Shown here one piece after another: positions 34,980 through 48,499 of a stretch of DNA of 64,000 bases. This DNA comes from a phage. The notes beneath the pieces are model-generated. The model had not been told where the DNA came from, ran no database searches, and was given only the letters and a program-made list of their open reading frames with translations. Position numbers and translations under genes: made by a program. The stretch's first letter is position 1; every line of letters starts with the position of its first letter. Location of the stretch: the NCBI GenBank assembly GCA_033286805.1, contig GCA_033286805.1_4727.1. The stretch is one strand, 5' to 3'.

Positions 34980-37592
34980 TTAAGCGTCCGGCGTAAAATC
35001 AAAAGGAATGTCCGTACGAATGATATCGTAACGTTTTCCTAGGAAATAAAACTCTTCGGGAACCTGACCAGGAATAATGCTATCGCCGATGAACTGCGGA
35101 TACGCCCAGATGTACTGAGTGAGTCCTTCGAACATATCCAGGTTATTTGCATGGTTACCCATGATACGTTTCCAGAGTTCGCGTTTATACGGTGTTTTAA
35201 CATCGAATCCATAAAGCGGTGCAAGATCTTCACCAGGAACAAATCCCAGGTAATAATGGATCTGACTAACCGGGAAACCAAGCGTATCTCGCGGAATGGT
35301 GATCGCTTGCTCTGCCTTGGTGACATGCGTCTCAATAATCCAGTCGTAGCACTCCGAATAGAACCGGTCGAATTTCTCTGGGTTATACCACGCTTTGGGA
35401 AGATTGAGTTTCTCCGTGAACGCGTTCGACATGATCGTCGGCAAGAACGGAAGAACACCGGTTTTGATCTGCGTGTATTTCGATTTTACCCGATTAACCA
35501 AATTCCAGCAACTGTATCCTAACTGTTCGTTACAAAACTCAACGTAGAGATCGTAGTCACCACCGGATAATGGGTTGTTAATATCACCGATGTCTGCGGC
35601 ATATTTGTTGGGATATCGGTTATTGAAAGCCAGTTTGGTTTGGTAATCGTAGATACACGGTTTGTTGTTCGCTGTATTGATCCACCACCAGGGTTCACCT
35701 ACTTGCACACAAATGTCCTGGACATGGGGGTAGATGATATCAGCAAACGCGGTTAACACATCCCCTAACCACGCCATCGCCTGTTGGTTACATGGAGACA
35801 GCAACCAGGACGGTGGTGTGTATCCGGTTGCTGCGATGTTTCCTTCCCAATCCTGCTGCGCCCACTCGAACGGGCAGGCTGTACTCATCAATTCGTAACT
35901 TAAACTGATGGTGACAGAGAAATGGTGTTTTGCGGCGTATGCAGCGAAAGCTTCATGCCATGCGATACAGGGTGGATTTAATACATCCGTGGTGTTCACC
36001 AGTAACTTACCTGCACTTGGCGTCCAGACAGTATCGTAGAAATGCGACATTCCAACATAGTGCACTAATTCATCCTGATATCCAGCATAAACCAGGTTTT
36101 CAAATACACGCTCTGGCGTGATGTTGTAATGGTCATCATAAGCGGTTATCGCACGAAGTTCGTGTGGCGTACAATGATGGCGATTAACCGTCATTTCCTG
36201 ATACACCCCATCGATAGGAAGAATCTCGAGGGTTAAACCAAGATCGATCGGTGTTTCCAGATAGGTCGTTTCTGTAGCACCTTCTTTATAATGTCGAGAA
36301 CTCATGCTGAACATCAACGACGTTACCGATTCGAGTTCGATAGGCTCGTCAGCATAGAACCCCGCCATTGCGTCATTGAAATCGATCGTTACGATTGCGC
36401 TTCTACCGTCTTCAGAGACATCGGTGGCGTATCGGGTTAATGAGATATACTGACGGCTATCGTCTTTGTGTACGACGGTTAAAACCGGCGGGTTTTCGGT
36501 ATCTGCAAAGTTACGCTGATCGCCAGTAAACGTGATCTTCGCTTTAAAGATCAAACCGAATAACGACGTCATGGGATCATACGCAATACAACCGTGATCC
36601 AGCGTATCCGTTGTCCGCCATTCTATCCCGACCAACCCGTTAGCGGTATGGCATCGCATATACGCATTAAGGACCATGTCTTCACTGACAACCGCGAAGT
36701 TCTCTGTTGACTGACCGTTGATAATCCAATACATCGGTTGCCAGAGGTTACGCGTACCTTTTGCGTAGCGGTAGGTTGGCGCGCCTTTAGGGTTGCCGTT
36801 ATTAAGATGGAATACAGCAGTACCTTGATAATGGTCGTTCGTATTAATCGGAACACTGTAAGCATCACCGAGATCCGTACGTTCCACCTTCTTGACTGTT
36901 GCGTTTTCAAATAACCCACGCAGCGCGGGTAAACCGATATCATCAGGCGCGTTTTCTCGACGAATCGCATCCGCGATGCGGTGGGCTAGGGCGGGGTAAA
37001 TGGTCTCACCCTGTTGTAGGTTTGCAAGACCTACAAAGCGATCGGGAGCGATGCCAGCAATCAATAACTCAACATCACCCTTCGTTCTATCGTCATTAAG
37101 ATATTTCAGTCCGGTAAGGTCAAGATGCTGAATAAGCGACAACAGGTTGTATTTACGGTTTTCAACAGTTAGTACAAGATCGCCTGCCCAAACCAAACTT
37201 CCCTCATCCGCTGTTACTTTAACGGATTGTCGGCCTGTGGTAGACGTTGTTGTCGTTTTATTTAATTGTCCTTGTAGGAAGTCGGTTGCGAGGTCAAAGG
37301 CAATACCGTAACGGTCAGCGACCGCTTGCATGATTTCACGTAACTGGGTATCTTCTTCAATGATAATCTTGACAGGTATTCCCAAGAACGCTTTAGCGAG
37401 GTCTCGTTTAACCAACGAGACGAATACGGATTTGTAGTATCGGCTTCCATCTTTCCCTTTAAAAAGAATGGAGGTTGTTTCGGGTGCCGATAGAACACGT
37501 GCAAATACAACATCGTCGGAAGTAAGAGAAAGTCCGTTTTTCTCGTTGACCAATCTTAGTATTTCATTTTGCGCGGTTTCATGTAACTTCAT
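34980..37592 (-). CDS. putative tail fibre/tailspike-like protein (870 aa) with shared N-terminal domain
   Basis: N-terminal ~110 aa (RDLAKAFLGIPVKI) paralogous to the 43326-43853 and 47669-48499 products. Confidence 0.55.
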   Translation of the reverse strand: MKLHETAQNEILRLVNEKNGLSLTSDDVVFARVLSAPETTSILFKGKDGSRYYKSVFVSLVKRDLAKAFLGIPVKIIIEEDTQLREIMQAVADRYGIAFDLATDFLQGQLNKTTTTSTTGRQSVKVTADEGSLVWAGDLVLTVENRKYNLLSLIQHLDLTGLKYLNDDRTKGDVELLIAGIAPDRFVGLANLQQGETIYPALAHRIADAIRRENAPDDIGLPALRGLFENATVKKVERTDLGDAYSVPINTNDHYQGTAVFHLNNGNPKGAPTYRYAKGTRNLWQPMYWIINGQSTENFAVVSEDMVLNAYMRCHTANGLVGIEWRTTDTLDHGCIAYDPMTSLFGLIFKAKITFTGDQRNFADTENPPVLTVVHKDDSRQYISLTRYATDVSEDGRSAIVTIDFNDAMAGFYADEPIELESVTSLMFSMSSRHYKEGATETTYLETPIDLGLTLEILPIDGVYQEMTVNRHHCTPHELRAITAYDDHYNITPERVFENLVYAGYQDELVHYVGMSHFYDTVWTPSAGKLLVNTTDVLNPPCIAWHEAFAAYAAKHHFSVTISLSYELMSTACPFEWAQQDWEGNIAATGYTPPSWLLSPCNQQAMAWLGDVLTAFADIIYPHVQDICVQVGEPWWWINTANNKPCIYDYQTKLAFNNRYPNKYAADIGDINNPLSGGDYDLYVEFCNEQLGYSCWNLVNRVKSKYTQIKTGVLPFLPTIMSNAFTEKLNLPKAWYNPEKFDRFYSECYDWIIETHVTKAEQAITIPRDTLGFPVSQIHYYLGFVPGEDLAPLYGFDVKTPYKRELWKRIMGNHANNLDMFEGLTQYIWAYPQFIGDSIIPGQVPEEFYFLGKRYDIIRTDIPFDFTPDA

Positions 37593-37614
37593 TAAAAACC
37601 TCAGCCCTTTAGAA

Positions 37615-38256
37615 TTAAATGTACTGCTTACCGCCCACGAAGGAAGTTAACCAGTTCCCGCTGACGAGTTGTGATACCCAGCCTGGAACGGCTCTACCAT
37701 TCTGGCTCATGATGTTACCACACCAACCAGGGAATCCGGGACGGATGTAATAGAAAGTTAAATTGTAGAGATGGCAATTCCATACCGCAACGTTATGTTT
37801 ACCAGAAACCGCTTTAAAGACAAACGCGACAGGTAACGGAGACGATAACAATTCGGTCACAGGGACGGCTGACCAGTTCGCATTCGCGTTCCATGGCTGC
37901 CAGGTATGGCTACGCGAGTCACCGTTAACGTTACCGTTGCTACCGCGTCCGCCCGCGTTCCACCATAGCGACGGACTCATGTTCTTAAGTGAGGTAAATT
38001 GCTGTGGTGGAATATTCGGAATGATAACAGGGTTGGTACCTTGTCCGTGTTTCTTTTCTTTTGCGTTCACATACCCGCTTATCGATTCCAGGTATTTGGT
38101 ACCAGGATAATTGTTCTGGACTTGTGTCGCAATATCACGAACGTCGAACGTCCAGCAGATCATGGTGTTGTAGTAAGCGTCGGTGTTATCGTGCCATGAG
38201 TTACCATCTTGTAAACGTGCGCCGCTATTCGGTGTTTTATCTGTGCTTATAGCCAT
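37615..38256 (-). CDS. hypothetical protein, possibly tail-fibre associated
   Basis: 213-aa ORF with Trp/Gly/Asn-rich segments, next to the fibre module. Confidence 0.5.
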   Translation of the reverse strand: MAISTDKTPNSGARLQDGNSWHDNTDAYYNTMICWTFDVRDIATQVQNNYPGTKYLESISGYVNAKEKKHGQGTNPVIIPNIPPQQFTSLKNMSPSLWWNAGGRGSNGNVNGDSRSHTWQPWNANANWSAVPVTELLSSPLPVAFVFKAVSGKHNVAVWNCHLYNLTFYYIRPGFPGWCGNIMSQNGRAVPGWVSQLVSGNWLTSFVGGKQYI

Positions 38257-38438
38257 GGTGTTGTCCTATACGTTGGTGGTTGAGGTGGCGGATATCGGAT
38301 GCGTGTTGTCGTCAGGTAATACATACAGAAACGCCCACTGATAAAACAGTAGCTTCTTTTAAATGGAATTTAGATATCGCGTATTTCTACCTCGTTTCTA
38401 TTCTCAAAAAGGAAATTTCATACGATGACGCCATAGCA

Positions 38439-38468
38439 GCTCCTCCTTCCCTGACGGGTTGGAGGAGC
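38439..38468. terminator. hairpin element in inverted orientation (GCTCCTCC-TTCCCTGACGGGTT-GGAGGAGC)
   Basis: Same stem and loop as the 12831 element, reverse-complemented; 9 nt past the lipoprotein gene stop. Confidence 0.65.
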
Positions 38469-38476
38469 ATACTTAA

Positions 38477-38983
38477 TTACTTACTGATAACCTCAACGGA
38501 GTTGGGATCAGCGATCAATGCACGGTCGGTAGAACAATTGAAGAAGACCGTACCAACACCATCACCGTTCGAGTTCAGGGTTGAACTTGCGTAAGACAGG
38601 GTTGGTTTATTCATGCGGTAGAAGCGTTCGCTGGTTGCGGTATTGAACCCCAGGTCAACGTAGTCTTTCACCGTGGTATACAACTGGGTGGACTCGAAAA
38701 CGGTTACCGGAGAGTCGACGGTAAATTGACTGCCTTCGTCCACAACCAGAACTTTATCGTTCCAGATTTCAGTGGTTGAGAACTTCGGTTTCCAATGTTC
38801 GAATTCCTGGGTTGCACCCCAGCAAGAATACACAGCGAGATTGCTGTTCTTCTCGACAGGTTTCAACCCCACCAGTTGTGTCAGGTCTTTATCCAGGTTC
38901 GGTAAACCTTCCAGCGTAGCACACCCACCCAGAGAAAGCACCATTAGCATACCAAGAACGATCGCGCAAAGTTTCTTTGTCAT
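38477..38983 (-). CDS. putative lipoprotein
   Basis: Signal peptide with lipobox LSLGG-C (MTKKLCAIVLGMLMVLSLGGCAT); GAGGAAA SD. Confidence 0.65.
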   Translation of the reverse strand: MTKKLCAIVLGMLMVLSLGGCATLEGLPNLDKDLTQLVGLKPVEKNSNLAVYSCWGATQEFEHWKPKFSTTEIWNDKVLVVDEGSQFTVDSPVTVFESTQLYTTVKDYVDLGFNTATSERFYRMNKPTLSYASSTLNSNGDGVGTVFFNCSTDRALIADPNSVEVISK

Positions 38984-39024
38984 CGGATTTCCTCATGTGT
39001 TAACGGGAGTGATTTCCATAGTAA

Positions 39025-39441
39025 TTACACAGTTGTAGGAAATTCCGGCCAATCGATATTTGGTGCAGCATCGGTATCGACAGCAGTCACCGCATCAGTG
39101 TAATCCAAAACAGCATTAAGTCGGGTCGTTTCTTCCTGAGTCAGTTTTCGCCCAGCCCGTAATTTTAACTGAATAAGATCGATGGAAGCCAGCGCAGAAT
39201 CAATCAAAGATTGTTTTATCTGTTCTGCCTCGGCGACGAGATCTTCGTGTTGCCGCTCGGGTTCCGGAGGTGCGGTAAACTCACCATTTGAGTATGACCA
39301 ACCTATTCCAGGTGACACAGCCTCCTTATCGTCGATATGAACCAACTGCTGATTGTCGAATATATCGAGCTCTGCTTCACCGTCGTAAACAATCGTGTTT
39401 ACTACCACCCCATTTTCAATAACAGCGTATGATGTACTCAT
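39025..39441 (-). CDS. tail fibre assembly protein (Tfa-like chaperone)
   Basis: C-terminal NIDWPEFP resembles the Tfa C-terminus; TAATG overlap with the fibre gene; start moved to ATG 39441 with GAGGAG SD. Confidence 0.7.
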   Translation of the reverse strand: MSTSYAVIENGVVVNTIVYDGEAELDIFDNQQLVHIDDKEAVSPGIGWSYSNGEFTAPPEPERQHEDLVAEAEQIKQSLIDSALASIDLIQLKLRAGRKLTQEETTRLNAVLDYTDAVTAVDTDAAPNIDWPEFPTTV

Positions 39442-42400
39442 TACATAAACTCCTCGATGATGCAAATCCCATTAGCACCACGCCCACCAGGCTTAGCGGT
39501 TCCTGAGTAAGAGTTATCGTAAGCACCGCCACCACCCGAACCAGGCGCGAGGCCGTTATGGGCGGTGCCAACACCAGCGCGACCGCCACCGCCCCAATAT
39601 GACGCACCCCCACATCCACCGACGGCAAGAGTACCGGCTTGTCCATCGTTACCGTCTCCGCCCGGAATGCGTATATCCCCGGTAGTAGGTACGCCCCCAT
39701 AGCCACCGCCAGTGTTTGTGACAGTTGTTTTTCCTGCGCCTTGCCCGCCGGGAGCAGTTAGCAGGGATGCAAATTTACTATCCCCACCCCCGTTCCCAGA
39801 CGTCGCCCCAGAGCCACCGGAACCACCAGAACCAATTACAACAGAATAACTAGCAGCTGTTACCGTTATAACCGAAATTACTGTTCCGCCAGCGCCTCCC
39901 CCAGCGCCAAAAAACGTTTCGCTGTTGGAATAAGCCTGACAGCCACCGCCGCCACCGCCGCCACCGGTTATTGTTACTCTAATCCGTTTTGTTCCTTGTG
40001 TTGGGGTGTACGTCCCTGACGATGTGAAAACACGCATGTTCAGTAAACGTCCGACATATCCGCTAGAATCGGCTAAACCAAGATCTTTAGCTGCTAACGT
40101 GATATTAGCTGTACCGTCAAACGGTTTACCGTTAATCGTGCGCGCGGTCTGCAACTTCGTCGCCGTTGCTGCGTTTCCTGATGTGTTCTGGTTCCCCGCA
40201 GCGTTAACACCCGGCAGATTGATGTTCGCACTACCGTCGAAAGATACCCCACCAATGGTGCGGGCTGTTTTCAGTTTTGTCGCCGTGGCAGCATTACCGG
40301 TTGTGTCTTGGTTACCGGTGGTGTTTACCCCAGGCAGGTTGATATTTGCCGTTCCGTTAAATGAAACACCGCCAATCGTCCTTGCTGTTTGAAGCCTCGT
40401 CGCGGTAGCGGCGTTACCCGTCGTGTTCTGGTTTCCGGTTGTGTTCACACCAGGGATACTATCTTTCGAGGTGTAGATCTGTGCCCATTCTGACCAGTTC
40501 GAATCGGCCGCATCACGACGTGAACGTAGGTAAGCTGGAGCGTATGCACCTGAGGTACCTGACCACCCAATGAGGATTTCACCTTCACCGACCGATGAAG
40601 CCCCTTTAAGATGAATGACGTTACCATAAGCGGTGGGATACCCGTTATTGTACGCTTCATACATCTGGATGCCCGCATTGCTGCCCTGAGCCGTGTTAGC
40701 TAATGCCGTAACACGACCTTTGGAGGCGAGAGCGGTAATACTGAAGCTAATATCCTTAGTACCGTCAAAGGCGACCCCATTAATCTTCCGTGCTGTTTGG
40801 AGTTTCGTGGCGGTAGCCGCATTACCAGAGGTACTCTGATTACCTGCTTTGTTCACGCCAGGCAAATCAATGTTGGCTGTTCCATCAAAGGACACGCCCC
40901 CTATGGTTCTCGCTGTCTGGAGTTTTGTTGCTGAGCCAGCGTTTCCGGAAGTGCTTTGATTACCTGCCGCGTTGACACCTGGTAGGTTAATGCTAGCAGA
41001 GCCATCAAAAGAAACTCCACCGATCGTGATTGGTGTTTTCAATTTCGTGGCTGTCGCAGCATTACCCGTCGTATTCTGATTGCCAGCCGCATTAACGCCT
41101 GGTAATGCGATATCGGTCGTACCATCGAACGCGACACCACCGATTTTACGGGCAGTCTGTAGCTTGGTCGCTGTAGCCGCGTTGCCGCTGGTATTTTGCG
41201 TGCCCGCTTTATTTACGCCTGGTAAATCAATGTTCGCAGTACCATCAAAAGAAACACCCCCGATGGTTCTCGCGGTCTCAAGTTTGGTTGCGCTTCCTGC
41301 GTTTCCGCTGGTGTCTTGGTTTCCCGCTGCATCAACACCCGGTAGACTGATGCTGGCCGAACCATCGAAACTCACACCACCGATCGTAACAGCGGTTTTC
41401 AATTTCGTAGCGGTTGCAGCGTTCCCCGTGGTATTTTGGTTACCTGTCGCATTCACACCCGGTAATGCAATATCCGCTGTTCCGTCAAAGGCAACGCCAC
41501 CGATTCTACGTGCAGTTTGTAGCTTGGTTGCACTAGCAGCGTTACCGCTGGTATTCTGGGTGCCAGCTTTGTTAACACCAGGGAGATCGATGTTAGCAGA
41601 ACCATCGAAGCTAACGCCACCTATCGTTCTTGCAGTAGCAAGTTTAGCTGCTGTAGCAGCGGCGTTACCGACTTTTAACCATTCGCCCCATGGACCATCC
41701 TGGCCGTTCCATGATGCCGTTAAACTACGTACGTAAATATTGCCGGTACATACAGTGTAACGTTGCGTTCCACCGAATTGCCCGGTTGGGAGCACTTCAA
41801 TGTAACCTGCGGCATTTGCTTCAGGGAAATTGTGGGCGACGTCCGCGTTCGTTGATACTGGTTTAGACCAAATACCCACAGACGCTTCAACCGGACCGTA
41901 CGTATTCAGATTTGCGTCGGTGGGAAGTTGTCCTCGAAAACGCTGGAATTGTGTTGCCGATAACCCCAACGTTGTTTGCATGCTTTCAATGCTGGATTGC
42001 TGAAGTAACGTCCGTGCTGTCGACGTAATCACGGTAAGCGCAACTTTATTAACACCGGTGAAATACGGGAGTTTGTCTGCTGATGTCGCTAAACCTGAAA
42101 AGGCGGTCAGTAATGCGTTAAGGGGCTGCTTCCCAGCTAACGCATTTGTTACCGTCGTTGCGAAATTAGGATCACTTCCTATAGCTCGAGCCAGCTTATT
42201 AAGCGTATTTAGCGTCGCTGGTGACGAGTCGATCAGCGCCGTGATCGCACGCATCACAAATTCCGTGTTGGCTATCTGTCGACTGCTATTGTTAACTGCT
42301 GCGGTGGGCGCTGCTGGCGTACCAGTGAATACAGGGCTATTAAGATCCGCCTTGAGGGCGATGAGACGTTTAAGCGCTTCAACATCAACTTTCAGGTTTT

Positions 42401-43319
42401 CCCATCCGATGAGAGAACCACCACTGTTGGTATGATAACGGTTGTACCAGAAGTCACCGTTAACGCCAAAAAAGAATATACATTTCTCTTCGTTTTGTGG
42501 ACCGGAACTATTTCGTGATGAGTCGATATATTTGATTTCAATAAGACCGCTAAACACCACTCCTGGGATTATATTGTTGTCTCCAGCTGATTGTGATACT
42601 TGGTACATCCCCGGGGTTGCAGCTTTAACCCACGTTAAGAATTCTGTTACTCCAGCGTTACCGCTGAAACGCTTAACGTCGGTAAGTATCGCCCCATAAC
42701 CGAACATACCGGGTAAAGCAACTCGCCCATCGGTACGGTCACGAATATCTGTTGCAACAACAGGCAATTGTTTACGAACGGCATTAACCGCTTTAGGCGT
42801 GGCCGATTTTGTCTCGTCGTCGCTATCGGTTTCATTACTTAGAATAGTTAAACCGCGTGTAGTAGTAGTTGCATCAGGAAGAAATGCGTTATCCAACACC
42901 TTAAGCTGTACTGCACTCGTATTACTAACAACGACATGCACTTGACAGTTAAGAACGCTGGTTGCGCCTTCGGCAGGCGTAGGCTTATATCTTTCTGGTG
43001 CACTGCAGACGGCAATCAGAACACCTTGGTCGTCATACAGACCGATCTCACGTACCCAGAACCCACCTTGACCAGCAGGAATAATACCCTCAACGATAAT
43101 CCTAGTTGTGCTATCACCATCCGCATGGATATTAGAAACTTCCCCACGATAAACTTCGTGAACAAGCGCTGTTTGGCTGGCGGTAGGGGTTGGGATCGAG
43201 CCGTTACCATCACCAACGGCAAAGTGTGTGATTTTTAGTTTCTCACCGTCGGGAAGTAACGCAGCGGTGATACGTTCTGCTCCTTTATCGGTAACTACCG
43301 TTATATATGCTGTACTCAT
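39441..43319 (-). CDS. tail fibre protein (1292 aa) with tandem repeats and glycine-rich C-terminus
   Basis: N-terminal KITHFAVGDGNGSIPTPTASQTALV (P2 H / side-tail-fibre-like); more than 10 repeats ending GNAATATKL; Gly-rich C-terminus; Tfa gene immediately downstream. Confidence 0.8.
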   Translation of the reverse strand: MSTAYITVVTDKGAERITAALLPDGEKLKITHFAVGDGNGSIPTPTASQTALVHEVYRGEVSNIHADGDSTTRIIVEGIIPAGQGGFWVREIGLYDDQGVLIAVCSAPERYKPTPAEGATSVLNCQVHVVVSNTSAVQLKVLDNAFLPDATTTTRGLTILSNETDSDDETKSATPKAVNAVRKQLPVVATDIRDRTDGRVALPGMFGYGAILTDVKRFSGNAGVTEFLTWVKAATPGMYQVSQSAGDNNIIPGVVFSGLIEIKYIDSSRNSSGPQNEEKCIFFFGVNGDFWYNRYHTNSGGSLIGWENLKVDVEALKRLIALKADLNSPVFTGTPAAPTAAVNNSSRQIANTEFVMRAITALIDSSPATLNTLNKLARAIGSDPNFATTVTNALAGKQPLNALLTAFSGLATSADKLPYFTGVNKVALTVITSTARTLLQQSSIESMQTTLGLSATQFQRFRGQLPTDANLNTYGPVEASVGIWSKPVSTNADVAHNFPEANAAGYIEVLPTGQFGGTQRYTVCTGNIYVRSLTASWNGQDGPWGEWLKVGNAAATAAKLATARTIGGVSFDGSANIDLPGVNKAGTQNTSGNAASATKLQTARRIGGVAFDGTADIALPGVNATGNQNTTGNAATATKLKTAVTIGGVSFDGSASISLPGVDAAGNQDTSGNAGSATKLETARTIGGVSFDGTANIDLPGVNKAGTQNTSGNAATATKLQTARKIGGVAFDGTTDIALPGVNAAGNQNTTGNAATATKLKTPITIGGVSFDGSASINLPGVNAAGNQSTSGNAGSATKLQTARTIGGVSFDGTANIDLPGVNKAGNQSTSGNAATATKLQTARKINGVAFDGTKDISFSITALASKGRVTALANTAQGSNAGIQMYEAYNNGYPTAYGNVIHLKGASSVGEGEILIGWSGTSGAYAPAYLRSRRDAADSNWSEWAQIYTSKDSIPGVNTTGNQNTTGNAATATRLQTARTIGGVSFNGTANINLPGVNTTGNQDTTGNAATATKLKTARTIGGVSFDGSANINLPGVNAAGNQNTSGNAATATKLQTARTINGKPFDGTANITLAAKDLGLADSSGYVGRLLNMRVFTSSGTYTPTQGTKRIRVTITGGGGGGGGCQAYSNSETFFGAGGGAGGTVISVITVTAASYSVVIGSGGSGGSGATSGNGGGDSKFASLLTAPGGQGAGKTTVTNTGGGYGGVPTTGDIRIPGGDGNDGQAGTLAVGGCGGASYWGGGGRAGVGTAHNGLAPGSGGGGAYDNSYSGTAKPGGRGANGICIIEEFM
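40094..41654 (-). repeat. in-frame tandem coding repeats (~42 aa / ~126 bp units) within the tail fibre gene
   Basis: Repeated TARTIGGVSFDGSANIDLPGVNxxGNQNTSGNAATATKLQ units in two blocks; mirrored by antisense repeat ORFs. Boundaries approximate. Confidence 0.7.
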
Positions 43320-43325
43320 GGTGTT

Positions 43326-43853
43326 TTATCCTGGATAAATAGTGATGATATCACCAATGACGGTTGTGGCACCGGCGTAAAGATGAGCCGGAGATACATC
43401 ATGTTGGTTTGTCACAGTAAGATCCAATCGACCACGCCAAACCATGGAGGTATTCGCGATGGGGATAGAAATCTTTTTGGATATATCGTCACGAAAATCA
43501 ATAACAGTGGCAAGGGTAACCGCATCAAAATCAACATCGGGATCAAAGACGAACCCGTATTGATCTGAAATCGCCCGAATAATGGCATGTATAGTTGTTG
43601 TCTCAACAGACTCTAAAACGATTTTTACCGGTATTCCTAAAAATGCCTTCGCGATATCGCGTCGGGCGTAAACGATAAAGCATTCACCGCACCACTTTGT
43701 TCCTTCATTTGCTGTGACGATCACTTTTGCCCTGTTAGCACCAGAACTCCCATCCAAGGTTAATGTAAGATCGGAGTTGCTGAACACGCTACCGTTACGT
43801 TGGTTTATCAACGTAATCAGTTCGTCTTTCCATGGTGGGTAAAGTGAACGCAT
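43326..43853 (-). CDS. hypothetical tail protein with shared N-terminal domain
   Basis: RRDIAKAFLGIPVKI segment; start moved to ATG 43853 with GGAGGAGGG SD. Confidence 0.55.
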   Translation of the reverse strand: MRSLYPPWKDELITLINQRNGSVFSNSDLTLTLDGSSGANRAKVIVTANEGTKWCGECFIVYARRDIAKAFLGIPVKIVLESVETTTIHAIIRAISDQYGFVFDPDVDFDAVTLATVIDFRDDISKKISIPIANTSMVWRGRLDLTVTNQHDVSPAHLYAGATTVIGDIITIYPG

Positions 43854-43894
43854 AAGCGCACCCTCCTCCAACAATCAAATTAAGATATATAACT

Positions 43895-43998
43895 CCTCGA
43901 AACCAAAGTGCGATTCGAGGTAAGCGTAAACAGTCCAGACGACCGCATAAAATTCCGCGCATATTACCCCTCTACCCCGACAAAGCGAGATAGAGGGG
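43895..43998. terminator. two hairpins (CCTCGAA...TTCGAGG and CCCCTCTA...TAGAGGGG)
   Basis: Inverted repeats at 43895-43920 and 43967-43998 in the 184-bp intergenic region. Confidence 0.5.
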
Positions 43999-44058
43999 AG
44001 GTTAATACGATTATGCTATTGCACTCCAAAGTTCATGGGGCGGTAACCGCCCCATCGG

Positions 44059-47000
44059 TTAAATTGTCGGTTTTACATCACGTAATAAGGCAATATAATA
44101 GCCTAATCCTCGGAGGATCTCCCCACTCCAGAAACCAAAATACATTCCGTCTCTGCCGAGATTAGCGCTATCTGGTGCGGGACTCCACCCACCGTTCATT
44201 ACGTCATCAACGGTGTAGCGGTTGATGTAGTTCTCAACGATTTCGTTATACGCATTAACAGCAACAGAATAGCCTTTATCGTTGGGATGTCCGTACAACA
44301 TTGCTAACGACGCACCAGCCAACCATAATCCTGCCATGTGACCAGTAAAGTCATTAGGGATAAAAGCAGGGGGTTTATCCATCGGAAAATCCGTAGGAGA
44401 TTGATAGGCGTTTTCCTGTTGATACGTAAACAAGAAATCAATCCAATGACTGATGTAAGTGGTTAATTTCTCAGGGACGGCTAAACCACGATCAAGCAGT
44501 CCAGCATAAAGCCGCACCGCTGAAAAGAAAGCCCTCGGCTGATAACCAGACCATGCTGTCTGATCGCCGAAATGGTACATCGTAAAATCATTAACTTTTG
44601 ATCCGCTTGGCGCATCCCAACGATCCCACACGTACGCACTTGCCCCTGGCCCTAAAACCCCGAATTTCTGATAATACCACTGCTGCGAGTCATACCAGAA
44701 ATTCACAACATTCTGAATCATGAGGTCACGTCGTTCAGCCGATACGTCCATATCCAGGAAGACCCATGGATGTTGGTAGCCGGGATAAGGCTGACCACGC
44801 CAACTGTCGAACGTCGGTGCGTTAGGGATATAGTTGTTAGAGAACGGAATAATACCCGGAGTATAAGGCAATGGATCCAGACGTTGGTTGACAATCGTAC
44901 AATCGCCAACACGTAATGTTCCCTCCGCCTCAAAGGTTGCTTTTAACGTAAACAGCATGGTATATCCGTCATCCGTGGTGTAAGTTGACGGTGGATTGTT
45001 GATAGCGTAAAGCTTAAATACCCCTTCAGCGATATCGCTGTCATCAGGCAAGAACAGAATTTCAGTTGAGCCATCACCCCACACAGGTGCAGAAGGTTTA
45101 GGGTCAGTGTCAACATGGTTCGGTTGATACCCTGAGAGCGTCCACCCATTCGCCGAAAGCGTCAATGTATTTCTTGCTGTGGTGGCCGGTAGCATATACC
45201 ACCATCGCCAACCATTTGCATCTTCTACACGAACGTTGTAGTCAATCGACGCGAAATAACTGACCTGCCTTACGATCTGTTTTGCGGTTGGATTGAATTC
45301 AAATTGCCCGCCTGCCGCAGTAAGCTGCGCTTTTAGGAACAACCCATCCCAGGAATCTTCCACCGCTTCGCTGAATTCTGTTGTAATTGCGACATCGTCT
45401 TTCCAGCCGACTTTATCAGCCGATATCAACACAGAACCTGTAACAGCATCGCCGGTTGGCGTTGAAGCTTCATCAACCGCATCAGCAGGAATCAACGAGC
45501 CTATTTTGAAATCCCATTCTTTCGGCTCAGCACTGGAAGGTAATACCAGCTTGTATGTTTTGGCTTTCGCTTCGGTTTTGTCCAAAGAAAGCGATAATGA
45601 GATCTCAACCGGAATTGCAATACCTGCCGTATCCTTACCTCCGCAGGTTACACGAAGAATTGAATTACGATTGACACGGAACGGAATGGCCTGCTGTTCA
45701 AGATAAATTTGTGCTGAAGATGCTTGAATCACGATCCAGCCATCGGTATCACGTGTGATTGTGAACGGTGCTTTCGATGGGTACGTATACGTGTAAGCGA
45801 TACCGTCGGTGTCGTAACGATCGGTTCCTTTTACTTGACGGAAGAACTTATCGTTGGCGTCAATACGGGTATATTCTTCAATCGTAAACAAAGATGCCTT
45901 GTACGCTTTCTGATAACGCTCCTGCTGCGTTAAACGATATAAGGTGTAGGCTGCTTCACAAAACCATTGTTCGGCGTCTGACGCGTTTCCCATGTAGTCT
46001 CTGGTGACCGGCACCTGGATCGGTCGGTTATGCTGACACTCGTTCGTTTTGATGAGGTATCCGCCATATTCAACAGGAACACGCGGTGCCCATGCAACCA
46101 AGTAAGAACCGCTGACGGATTTATCTTTGAGTACGATGGTACCTACCTCATCGTCAGTACACGCTTCAAGATCGTCTCCGTCAGCACTTACGTAACGTTT
46201 TGTGCGTAACGCAACTTTCTCGATAGGGAACACCGTACCCTTTGTATCCCAGTCAATCGTCCCATCATCATTGGTTTTGAACACATCGGCGTTCAAATTC
46301 TGCCAGCCGAGTTTACCCTCATAGACCTGAACAACAAGATCCATGTATTCCCCGAACGTTGGTGCCCCATGTGTTATTTTTCCAATACCGTTGGTGAATG
46401 TAACCGCTGTGTCATGGAAACCGCCATGTGTTGGGTAATCGTCTTTTGCAAGAGGATAATGGGCCAACACAGGTTGTTTACCATTAACAATCCAGTTAGC
46501 GATCCAGCGTGTCGGTGTATCCGGTGGTTCAAGGCCTGCATAGAACGCTTTTATATACGCATCGAACGATGTCTCTGCTAATGTGAGATAATGCGCTTTA
46601 AGCTTGGTGTCATCCGTTGTATGACTGAATATACCCGCACCCAGAATTAACAACGACTGTCCTTCTGTTGTTGCGTCACCATCCGGTTGTGCTTCTTGTC
46701 GTGTTGCTGCAATGAAATGACGGTTGTTTACCATGACCCCGCTTTCATTTAACACGTAATGATCGGTTTCTGGGTCGGTAAACGTTCCTGTGTTTCGGGT
46801 TAAGAATCTTGCATGGCCATAACCAACGAAATTAACCGGCGACGCTGTAATCACCCATTTACCGATAAGTTGAGCAACATCATTATAACGCTCGGATGCG
46901 GTGATTTGTTTCACGTACCAGTCTTTATGGTTAAATGTCCAAAGCAGGAAGTAATAAGTTGTATCGATTTCCATCACTGGGAACGTCGGCGTTAACGGCT

Positions 47001-47655
47001 CCAGCATTAAGTAGTTGCTCCAGTCAATCTGTCCGCCAACAACCGATGGGGTAATCTCTAATAACTGACACCATTCATAACGGTCCGGTACACTACTGTA
47101 CGTTGTTGGTAAAGGTAACTTGTATACGCCAGTACGATTCAGATCGAACGCTTTTCTAGCCGATCCTAAATCAACATAAATACTCGACGATGTGCTTGCA
47201 TCAGATGCCTCCAAAGCACCTAACGTTGACCGATACATTGAGATGAACAACGTATCTTTCCAGTAAGGGTTATCCTTGATTGGTTCTAAAGCGATTTGTG
47301 CGGAGATGCTGTTCTGTGTCCCTAACTGGTATGTTGCATTTAAAGATTCTTCTGTGAAATAACTTTCTGCAATCGTCAGATGGAACTGCTCGTTCAATAA
47401 CGCGAGTGCGGCGCGGCCAGTAACATCCTCGTTACCGGTTTCTTTTTTCACGATCGCGCCGAACGGAAACAGTGTCGCGAATGACCGTTTTGGTTTATTA
47501 ACCGTAACCGTCCCTGTGTAATTTCCAACACCGTCAAGTTTTTGACTATCGCCAACAGCAGTGACTGCGATACCATCAGCCGGGATATTTGTTTTATTTA
47601 GCACATTGAGTTGGTCAACCAGATCCTGCTTATCGTCAGGTAAGAATGTCGCCAT
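44059..47655 (-). CDS. large tail-associated protein (1198 aa)
   Basis: Long ORF, AAGGTGGAG SD, located within the tail-fibre module. Confidence 0.6.
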   Translation of the reverse strand: MATFLPDDKQDLVDQLNVLNKTNIPADGIAVTAVGDSQKLDGVGNYTGTVTVNKPKRSFATLFPFGAIVKKETGNEDVTGRAALALLNEQFHLTIAESYFTEESLNATYQLGTQNSISAQIALEPIKDNPYWKDTLFISMYRSTLGALEASDASTSSSIYVDLGSARKAFDLNRTGVYKLPLPTTYSSVPDRYEWCQLLEITPSVVGGQIDWSNYLMLEPLTPTFPVMEIDTTYYFLLWTFNHKDWYVKQITASERYNDVAQLIGKWVITASPVNFVGYGHARFLTRNTGTFTDPETDHYVLNESGVMVNNRHFIAATRQEAQPDGDATTEGQSLLILGAGIFSHTTDDTKLKAHYLTLAETSFDAYIKAFYAGLEPPDTPTRWIANWIVNGKQPVLAHYPLAKDDYPTHGGFHDTAVTFTNGIGKITHGAPTFGEYMDLVVQVYEGKLGWQNLNADVFKTNDDGTIDWDTKGTVFPIEKVALRTKRYVSADGDDLEACTDDEVGTIVLKDKSVSGSYLVAWAPRVPVEYGGYLIKTNECQHNRPIQVPVTRDYMGNASDAEQWFCEAAYTLYRLTQQERYQKAYKASLFTIEEYTRIDANDKFFRQVKGTDRYDTDGIAYTYTYPSKAPFTITRDTDGWIVIQASSAQIYLEQQAIPFRVNRNSILRVTCGGKDTAGIAIPVEISLSLSLDKTEAKAKTYKLVLPSSAEPKEWDFKIGSLIPADAVDEASTPTGDAVTGSVLISADKVGWKDDVAITTEFSEAVEDSWDGLFLKAQLTAAGGQFEFNPTAKQIVRQVSYFASIDYNVRVEDANGWRWWYMLPATTARNTLTLSANGWTLSGYQPNHVDTDPKPSAPVWGDGSTEILFLPDDSDIAEGVFKLYAINNPPSTYTTDDGYTMLFTLKATFEAEGTLRVGDCTIVNQRLDPLPYTPGIIPFSNNYIPNAPTFDSWRGQPYPGYQHPWVFLDMDVSAERRDLMIQNVVNFWYDSQQWYYQKFGVLGPGASAYVWDRWDAPSGSKVNDFTMYHFGDQTAWSGYQPRAFFSAVRLYAGLLDRGLAVPEKLTTYISHWIDFLFTYQQENAYQSPTDFPMDKPPAFIPNDFTGHMAGLWLAGASLAMLYGHPNDKGYSVAVNAYNEIVENYINRYTVDDVMNGGWSPAPDSANLGRDGMYFGFWSGEILRGLGYYIALLRDVKPTI

Positions 47656-47668
47656 TATTTACTCCACC

Positions 47669-48499
47669 TTAATCGTAACTAAAATAAAGTTTGCTGCTGA
47701 CGCCGCTATCGGAATGAGGTTTTAATACCAGAACAGAGCTTCCGAACGACGGAAGTATTGGAACATCTAAATCGTTCGCATCGGCAACTTTTCCATTATA
47801 AACGACATTGGCTGTTGTGATGAGTTCCCAAGCTAAGGTATAACTCATTGAAATCAGCGACGAGGCTAAACGGAATGCGTTGTATCCTTCTGGAGTATCT
47901 CCAACCGACATCGAACGTATCGCATCTTGCGGTGGTAAATTTAGCTTGATGCCGTAGGTGCTGAATGTGTGGAAATCCCCTTGTTTACTATCTTCTGGAT
48001 AATACGAGGTTAGCGGTTCTCGCACCGTAATCAGTTCGCTAATATCGGTACTTACATCTTTTCGTGCGAGGAATTGAAACGTACCGTGCCATGATGCCGA
48101 TGCGTCAGAACGAACGGGAACAGATATGGTTTTCTCGCCGCTTTCAAATTTAACCTGTGATGCTAACGCTGAAGAATCAAAGATCGTTAAATCGATCTTC
48201 AACCCATATTTCTTAAACAGCTGCGTTAAGCAGTCTGCTATCGTCGTCTTATCAGCAACGACAATAAAAGGTTGGTGTTTGATAAAGAGCTTATTAATGT
48301 CTCGACGTTGAAGATAAACCTGTACGGGGTCTTCGACGTAGTAAACCGATTGTGGTGCGGGGGCTATAGAAAGGCGTAACCGACCCGATGCACCATACCA
48401 GGCTGGCGTTAACGTAACGTCTGACAGGGACAACGGATGCTGGAGATAGGCGTTTATTTTAGATAACACTTCCTCCTGCCATGATGCTTCAGGATACAT
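47669..48499 (-). CDS. hypothetical tail protein sharing the N-terminal domain
   Basis: N-terminal segment (LQRRDINKLF) weakly paralogous to the 34980 and 43326 products. Confidence 0.5.
   Translation of the reverse strand: MYPEASWQEEVLSKINAYLQHPLSLSDVTLTPAWYGASGRLRLSIAPAPQSVYYVEDPVQVYLQRRDINKLFIKHQPFIVVADKTTIADCLTQLFKKYGLKIDLTIFDSSALASQVKFESGEKTISVPVRSDASASWHGTFQFLARKDVSTDISELITVREPLTSYYPEDSKQGDFHTFSTYGIKLNLPPQDAIRSMSVGDTPEGYNAFRLASSLISMSYTLAWELITTANVVYNGKVADANDLDVPILPSFGSSVLVLKPHSDSGVSSKLYFSYD

Follow-up and report, generated by a model that had tools for sequence, protein, structure and literature searches.

We have found that four otherwise different proteins of a phage gene cluster open with the same domain of about 150 residues, the N-terminal domain (NTD) of the family DUF7941. 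The cluster lies at positions 34980-48499 of a 64,000-nucleotide (nt) stretch of DNA from contig GCA_033286805.1_4727.1 (NCBI GenBank assembly GCA_033286805.1), called the window below, and the four proteins are 870, 175, 276 and 1198 amino acids (aa) long. The original prediction, made from the sequence of the window, was that products of 870, 176 and 276 aa share an N-terminal segment, as in phages that carry several receptor-binding proteins on one attachment site. The segment proved to be a genuine homologous domain and the three members named are all valid, but the count was incomplete, with the 1198-aa protein as a fourth member (hhalign). This region has 94.6% nucleotide identity over 98% of its length to Escherichia phage vB_EcoM_Goslar, a 237-kb jumbo phage of the Chimalliviridae, and the observation, while correct, is not new, the orthologous genes of Goslar having been covered before. 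A preprint by Basu et al. (bioRxiv 10.64898/2026.04.21.720040, 22 April 2026) describes DUF7941 in Goslar gp22, gp23, gp31, gp33, gp34, gp86, gp91, gp92, gp93 and gp161. What we add is the cassette variation among Goslar-like phages, the N-terminal position of the domain across the family, its fusion partners, the tandem arrays and a hypothesis on a connector pair. We consider it likely that the NTD is a docking module which binds the baseplate rim or the linker and C-terminal domain (CTD) of another DUF7941 protein, with the 870- and 1198-aa proteins as host-interaction members and the 276- and 175-aa proteins as connectors.

A homologous N-terminal domain in four proteins

When the N-termini of the three proteins first named are aligned, the likeness covers about 145 residues with statistical support and is not confined to a few residues. 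By BLASTP the 870- and 176-aa proteins are 31% identical over 142 aa (E 4e-22), the 176- and 276-aa proteins 29% identical over 147 aa (E 1e-11) and the 870- and 276-aa proteins 26% identical over 82 aa (E 1e-3). The product given as 176 aa in the original prediction has 175 aa when read from an ATG, as Goslar gp91 has, and 182 aa if the start is a TTG further upstream. All three proteins score above the Pfam gathering cut-off of 27 bits for DUF7941 (PF25613), with 149.6 bits for the 870-aa, 57.3 bits for the 176-aa and 37.6 bits for the 276-aa protein, and they also match PHROGs 1037 and 2935, both described as 'virion structural protein'.

The fourth member was harder to detect. Its N-terminus resembled the others by eye in the first alignment, and it was missed by BLASTP, phmmer and a hidden Markov model (HMM) of three sequences. 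Detection needed a profile of 130 NTD sequences that was built from an exhaustive HMM search. A search for homologous proteins with the 1198-aa N-terminus gave two fragments only, and its orthologues were therefore drawn from the loci of related phages. Taken together with these orthologues, the N-terminus matched the 130-sequence profile at 97.7% (hhalign, E 1.9e-12, 141 columns). The same profile was used to scan all 178 open reading frames (ORFs) of at least 80 aa in the six frames of the whole window. Four of them matched, at 100, 99.8, 99.6 (the 276-aa protein) and 95.6%, and the next best reached 7%.

A signature motif of the domain, KRDLAKAFLGIPVKII in the 870-aa protein, has counterparts in the 175- and 276-aa proteins and corresponds to the family consensus Y.R.DLAk.F.GiP found by column conservation. 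Different codons are used for 11 of the 13 motif residues that are identical between the 870- and 175-aa proteins, which points to selection on the protein and rules out recent gene conversion as the source of the near-identical motif. The idea that the similarity stems from chance, low complexity or recent local gene conversion and that there is no common domain has the weak BLASTP value between the 870- and 276-aa proteins as the sole point in its favour and can be set aside with near certainty, being refuted by the E-values down to 4e-22 over 142 aa, the scores of all three proteins above a curated Pfam threshold, the clean separation of four members from the other 174 ORFs and the codon differences.

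The four proteins differ in what follows the NTD. DUF7941 proteins have a globular NTD of about 150 aa and then a disordered linker, with or without a globular CTD, and this is the arrangement seen here. Matches of the 870- and 276-aa proteins reach across the whole PF25613 model of 276 positions, with NTD, linker and CTD; in the 276-aa protein, which contains DUF7941 only, aa 56-275 aligned to HMM positions 63-274 of 276. The 176-aa protein covers only positions 7-154 and is a minimal DUF7941. We predicted the structure of the shared domain on this protein with AlphaFold2 (AF2), using an alignment of 15 sequences, and obtained a mean predicted local distance difference test score (pLDDT) of 77.7. 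Residues 1-154 form a folded alpha/beta domain with block pLDDT values of about 75-94, and residues 155-176 fall below 50 and are disordered.

Beyond DUF7941, the 870-aa protein has two domains related to the sheath proteins gp64 and gp65 of phage N4, TIM-barrel_NCTSP with 286.5 bits and NCTSP_N with 41.3 bits (Pfam, cut-off 27), and in the PDB it matched 9lc0_M (N4 Gp64, E 4e-30) and 9lc0_I (non-contractile tail sheath, E 5e-7). The 1198-aa protein matches PHROG 2871, 'tail protein', from about residue 280 to residue 1198 (E 2e-298). A tblastn search traced this C-terminal module, with identities of 28-42%, to 533 phage records that span many morphotypes, and a few of these are labelled 'colanic acid degradation' or 'glycosidase superfamily'. 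C-terminal modules of a receptor-binding type are borne by the 870- and 1198-aa proteins, which are probably the members that interact with the host, as predicted from these domain matches. The 175- and 276-aa proteins look like connectors or filament subunits, which is a better reading than receptor binders because they consist of DUF7941 only and have no receptor-binding part. Of the several receptor-binding proteins on a shared anchor that had been proposed, the 870-aa protein is thus retained as a candidate and the two shorter ones are not, with the 1198-aa protein as the second candidate.

Structural relatives and the wider family

A Foldseek search of the PDB with the NTD model gave a single significant match, 9xqd_0 (E 9.8e-7, probability 1.0), in which the alignment takes in all 150 modelled residues. 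The matched chain is PHIKZ127, so the domain has the same fold as the phiKZ gp127 NTD in the outer-baseplate model. Only structure-based searches brought up phiKZ gp127, which sequence-profile searches of the PDB missed, and the sequence identity between phiKZ gp127 or gp126 (PDB 9XQD, PMC13250141) and the window proteins is only 13-14%. Both of these phiKZ proteins nevertheless score above the DUF7941 threshold in Pfam, and phiKZ gp143 falls below it. The 276-aa protein has the architecture of phiKZ gp127 (290 aa). Its downstream partner in the window is the 1198-aa fusion, whereas phiKZ gp126 is a bare NTD, and phiKZ has about 3 family members against 10 in Goslar-type phages. According to the phiKZ virion atlas, each star lobe has a single gp127 at the end of a band of five gp139 dimers running across the outer baseplate, and at six sites per virion the NTD of gp127 is in direct contact with the last gp139 dimer (PMC13250141). 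A role in attachment is well founded because phiKZ gp127, the sole structural relative in the PDB, sits on this outer baseplate rim.

The window is of chimallivirus origin, that is from a phiKZ-like, nucleus-forming jumbo phage, and the relatives of the domain come from the same kind of phage. A tblastn search of 50,697 phage records with the 176-aa protein found Goslar alone. Since the family is too diverged for BLAST, its distribution was taken from profile and fold searches. A BFVD search gave 75 fold matches, and those with a name all belong to phiKZ-like jumbo phages: Goslar gp86, which was the top match with a template modelling score (TM-score) of 0.77, and proteins of PhiPA3, EL, PhiEaH1, RisingSun, Eowyn, Moabite and PS1. 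The DUF7941 module is so far found almost only in chimalliviruses.

The exhaustive search, which covered 1.84 billion representative proteins, returned 305 cluster representatives at E ≤1e-3. The NTD starts no more than 30 residues from the N-terminus in 138 of the top 148, and the lengths of these 148 proteins fall into three modes, about 165-195, about 270-300 and more than 400 aa. The C-terminal Pfam domains of the 56 long members include DUF285 (12 cases), GP38 adhesin (two), LRR_5 (two), Laminin_G_3, the NCTSP TIM barrel and an Ig-like domain. The NTD is followed by a moderately conserved linker motif, L..iI....L.GL.Yp (column conservation); short members end directly after it and phiKZ gp126 ends before it. 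About 15 of the top 148 proteins have two or three NTD and linker units in tandem with a period of about 170 aa. The examples P0075, P0081, P0108 and P0123 are distant relatives, and AF2 run without an alignment on P0081, which has three NTDs, gave a pLDDT of 29.6.

A different kind of repeat was seen in a few Mollicutes-like surface lipoproteins (such as P0093 and P0095), which have 6-8 copies of only the first 65 or so NTD residues, a helix and a hairpin. At least one of them, P0093, ends in a BspA/DUF285-like C-terminus. These partial repeats may explain the Spiroplasma entries that InterPro lists for DUF7941 (PMC13375240).

Proposed docking and chaining of DUF7941 proteins

We take the virion association of these proteins, their copy numbers, the gp22 filaments and the map position of gp127 from the literature. 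For Goslar, Basu et al. (10.64898/2026.04.21.720040) describe carbohydrate-binding, glycoside-hydrolase or leucine-rich repeat domains on gp86, gp92 and gp161, recombinant gp22 filaments seen by negative stain, and AlphaFold3 (AF3) predictions of head-to-tail oligomers in which one protomer docks through its linker and CTD on the NTD of the next. They also fitted a gp126-gp127 heterodimer to the phiKZ map, estimated more than 2500 DUF7941 protomers per Goslar virion and proposed that a 'fibre cloud' is attached to the baseplate periphery at six sites. Their liquid chromatography and tandem mass spectrometry data (Table S4) give copies per virion of about 4.9 for gp92, 4.8 for gp93, 4.5 for gp86, 1.2 for gp91, 577 for gp22 and 43 for the tail fibre gp90.

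The window is from a different isolate than Goslar, and our DUF7941 assignments for the orthologues of gp86, gp91, gp92 and gp93 are the same as theirs, including the cryptic gp92 N-terminus and the types of C-terminal domain. The NTD profile also independently recovers Goslar gp22, gp23, gp31, gp33 and gp34 at 99% or better, and matched none of 13 neighbouring Goslar genes. Of these members, gp31, gp33 and gp34 lie on either side of gp32, which is the spoke protein and a homologue of phiKZ gp139. Looking for the respective terms in the text of the preprint, we found no treatment of cassette variability, of gp93-gp92 co-occurrence, of the 584-aa DUF7941 and DUF285 gene described below, of a fusion-partner survey or of tandem-NTD proteins. 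The value of the present analysis is then independent confirmation together with comparative detail on cassette gain and loss, fusion partners and tandem arrays.

In the mechanism that we favour, the alpha/beta NTD would act as the docking plug of its protein. The plug would attach either to the outer rim of a phiKZ-type baseplate or to a socket formed by the linker and CTD of another DUF7941 protein. On the baseplate it would dock where the band of dimers of the spoke protein (Goslar gp32, phiKZ gp139) ends, a site that occurs six times per virion. The distal module presented in this way would be, in the 870-aa protein, a TIM barrel like those of N4 sheath and receptor-binding proteins and, in the 1198-aa protein, a glycosidase-like tail-protein part subject to wide exchange between phages. 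Connectors made of DUF7941 only would be the 276-aa protein (NTD, linker and CTD) and the 175-aa protein (NTD and linker), and all four proteins would be low-copy members, at about 6 copies each per virion, of a network of DUF7941 filaments that radiates from the baseplate. The docking partners, the order of the chain and receptor binding are the parts that we infer here. Proteins with tandem NTD and linker units amount to a covalent form of the proposed chain, and together with the conserved linker motif they lend indirect support, at the level of sequence, to head-to-tail oligomerisation.

Looking at the possible problems with this mechanism, several points weigh against it. In the Goslar baseplate map itself no density was seen for any DUF7941 protein, filaments were seen for recombinant gp22 only, the chain order and the heterotypic contacts rest on AF3 interface predicted template modelling (ipTM) values, and gp91, at about 1 copy, is near the detection limit in the virion (10.64898/2026.04.21.720040). 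The fold match is partly a comparison of one prediction with another because the phiKZ gp127 coordinates are an AF3 model docked in a 4.4-Å map (PMC13250141), and the TM-scores are moderate, at about 0.5-0.6. The 1198-aa N-terminus on its own scores 17.2 bits for PF25613, which is below the threshold, in the correct register. Finally, that the C-terminal modules bind a receptor or act as enzymes is a prediction.

The 'one attachment site' of the original prediction was not established, and the published Goslar model is instead one of head-to-tail chaining from six baseplate sites. An arrangement in which the NTDs compete for or share one baseplate docking site, with alternative receptor-binding proteins side by side and no chaining, is in our judgement unlikely. 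It would agree with the direct contact between the phiKZ gp127 NTD and the terminal gp139 dimer at six sites per virion (PMC13250141) and with the roughly 5 copies each of Goslar gp86, gp92 and gp93, which are consistent with a six-fold stoichiometry. However, three or four proteins at about 5-6 copies each would already outnumber six sites, the formation of filaments by gp22 speaks against it, and the natural proteins with 2-3 tandem NTD and linker units favour a serial, NTD-to-NTD arrangement. A single site becomes less likely mainly because more than 2500 protomers per virion are far beyond six sites and because two of the three proteins originally named, the 175- and 276-aa ones, have no receptor-binding part.

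The pattern of branched spikes was the other half of that prediction. Branched multi-tailspike adaptor systems such as CBA120 TSP1-4, G7C gp63.1/gp66 and those of Klebsiella phage PhiK64-1 have trimeric spikes with N-terminal domains of the T4 gp10-like or XD type on a defined branched scaffold. The DUF7941 proteins resemble them in having a conserved N-terminal attachment module with exchangeable distal domains, and in that several such proteins occur per virion. Unlike them, DUF7941 has an unrelated fold, is apparently monomeric and is proposed to chain head to tail. Given that no gp10-like or XD N-terminal domain was detected in these proteins by Pfam, PHROG and Foldseek PDB searches, the DUF7941 system is not a gp10-like trimeric adaptor system, and the two are analogous in their logic and not related.

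Gene order and cassette variation among Goslar-like phages

The gene order of the region, all on the minus strand, is shared with Goslar by sequence comparison (Table 1). The 175-aa gene lies directly upstream of the tail-fibre gene. The fibre is of the P2/P1 type, with a Phage_tail_fib N-terminus, repeats of about 32 aa and a Gly_rich_2 C-terminus (Pfam), and has 1292 aa against 1324 aa in Goslar, and the repeat regions of the two align badly. The fibre gene and the Caudo_TAP gene share 1 nt, where the stop codon of the first meets the start of the second. No DUF7941 signal was found in the fibre by Pfam or by the NTD-profile scan of the window ORFs.

Table 1. Genes and domains of the cluster, with related features in other loci (positions in the window unless a locus is named)
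Feature	Position	Strand	Residues	Goslar orthologue
276-aa gene, DUF7941 only	47669-48499	-	276	gp93
NTD of 276-aa protein	48050-48499	-	about 1-150	
Linker and CTD of 276-aa protein	47672-48049	-	151-276	
Signature motif counterpart, 276-aa protein	48260-48307	-		
1198-aa gene	44059-47655	-	1198	gp92
Cryptic DUF7941 NTD of 1198-aa protein	47224-47655	-	1-144	
Large C-terminal tail-protein module of 1198-aa protein	44086-46821	-	about 279-1190	
Non-coding gap between 1198- and 175-aa genes, about 205 nt	43854-44058			
175-aa gene (176 aa in the original prediction), minimal DUF7941	43326-43853	-	175	gp91
NTD of 175-aa protein	43395-43853	-	1-153	
22-residue disordered tail of 175-aa protein	43329-43394	-		
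Signature motif counterpart, 175-aa protein	43617-43664	-		
Tail fibre	39441-43319	-	1292	gp90
Caudo_TAP chaperone / assembly gene	39025-39441	-		gp89
168-aa ORF	38477-38983	-	168	gp88
213-aa ORF	37615-38256	-	213	gp87
870-aa gene, full DUF7941	34980-37592	-	870	gp86
NTD of 870-aa protein	37143-37592	-		
Signature motif, 870-aa protein	37362-37409	-		
Linker and CTD of 870-aa protein	36762-37142	-		
NCTSP_N domain of 870-aa protein	36243-36740	-	285-450	
N4 gp64/gp65-type TIM barrel of 870-aa protein	35082-36167	-	476-837	
Deletion remnant, locus L003	6635-8054			
Deletion remnant, locus L004	6099-7518			
Extra gene beside gp87 orthologue, locus L002	14986-15753		255	
Extra gene beside gp87 orthologue, locus L009	14893-15558		221	

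We compared eight Goslar-like contexts by their gene tables and a blastn map; the related loci are labelled L002 to L012. Every context that reaches far enough has kept the 175-aa gene, the fibre gene and the 870-aa gene. The 276- and 1198-aa genes are both present in the window, Goslar, L002 and L012, and both absent in L005, L009/L010 and L011. In L003 and L004 one deletion of about 3 kb truncates both, leaving a 215-aa gp93-like ORF, itself truncated, and a 255-aa piece equivalent to residues 929-1170 of the gp92-like protein, which looks like a decaying cassette. A 584-aa gene with DUF7941 and DUF285 (and a PKD-like domain) is present in L002, L003, L009, L011 and L012, exactly where the window has the gap between its 1198- and 175-aa genes, and it varies independently of the 276/1198 pair. 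By blastn this gap has no nucleotide match in the relatives. The C-terminus of the fibre alternates as well, between Gly_rich_2 with a separate assembly protein (TAP) and a Peptidase_S74 self-cleaving chaperone in relatives.

The most likely connector for the 1198-aa protein is the 276-aa one, which would mirror phiKZ gp127-gp126; this is suggested by the way the genes are ordered, by copy numbers that are equal for gp93 and gp92, and by the joint gain and loss of the two genes. A similar idea for the 175-aa protein, as an adaptor for the adjacent P2-type fibre, is a weak one; it would agree with the constant synteny, but is contradicted by the copy numbers of about 1.2 and 43 in the Goslar mass spectrometry.

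Two further genes between the fibre and the 870-aa gene were looked at. The 213-aa ORF has no family match in Pfam or PHROG. An extra gene stands beside this gp87 orthologue in L002 and in L009, and the one in L002 is a paralogue of it with 37-39% identity. The 168-aa ORF opens with a lipoprotein signal peptide, MTKKLCAIVLGMLMVLSLGG|C, and is found just downstream of the fibre and chaperone genes in every related locus, at 89-95% identity. Its place beside receptor-binding genes recalls, by analogy, receptor-masking lipoproteins such as T5 Llp or Cor. Its Goslar orthologue gp88 was measured at about 740 copies per virion by mass spectrometry (10.64898/2026.04.21.720040), a high count that could instead come from co-purifying membrane.

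The cluster also encodes a complete P2/P1-type fibre, present at about 43 copies per virion, and its chaperone. This raises the possibility that adsorption is left to this 1292-aa fibre and other fibres, and that the DUF7941 proteins serve only as structural parts or decoration of the baseplate. In that case the modules at the C-termini of the 870- and 1198-aa proteins might, for example, brace the structure or degrade matrix once phages are released. Natural relatives do without the 276/1198 pair, as this would allow, and a receptor-binding role of DUF7941 proteins is predicted from their domains. We nevertheless give this explanation only a slim chance. The fusion partners across the family are mostly of adhesin or ligand-binding types, including the T2-type GP38 adhesin and lectin-like domains, the cassette-like gain and loss is typical of host-range determinants, and the C-terminal part of the 870-aa protein shares homology with gp64/gp65, the sheath heterodimer of N4, of which gp65 is the receptor-binding protein (PMC13434306).

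The relation to N4 should be read with some care. Among the window proteins the combination of NCTSP_N and TIM-barrel_NCTSP known from N4 gp64/gp65 (PDB 9LC0, 9YF4) occurs in the 870-aa C-terminus only, and this protein represents only part of the ten-domain N4 gp65. Unlike in N4, where the module forms a sheath round a short tail, it is here carried on a DUF7941 anchor in a contractile-tailed jumbo phage. A six-fold sheath of the N4 type is unlikely for the 870-aa protein because the Goslar tail is contractile (10.64898/2026.04.21.720040). Its link to N4, judged by its domains, is one of domain homology and not of membership of the sheath system.

Returning to docking and chaining as the preferred reading, a further suggestion can be made, which we put forward as tentative. 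Plug-and-socket contacts of DUF7941 might let Goslar-like phages add, drop and swap host-recognition cassettes, with the 276-aa protein as a dedicated 1:1 connector for the 1198-aa protein and with a host range that would be combinatorial. Host recognition by nucleus-forming jumbo phages is poorly understood, and these phages are candidates for therapy. If the suggestion holds, their host range would be set by which DUF7941 fusions plug into the baseplate network. An N-terminal docking domain with interchangeable distal modules would then explain the many 'structural protein' paralogues of their virions, and it could provide a possible handle for host-range engineering.

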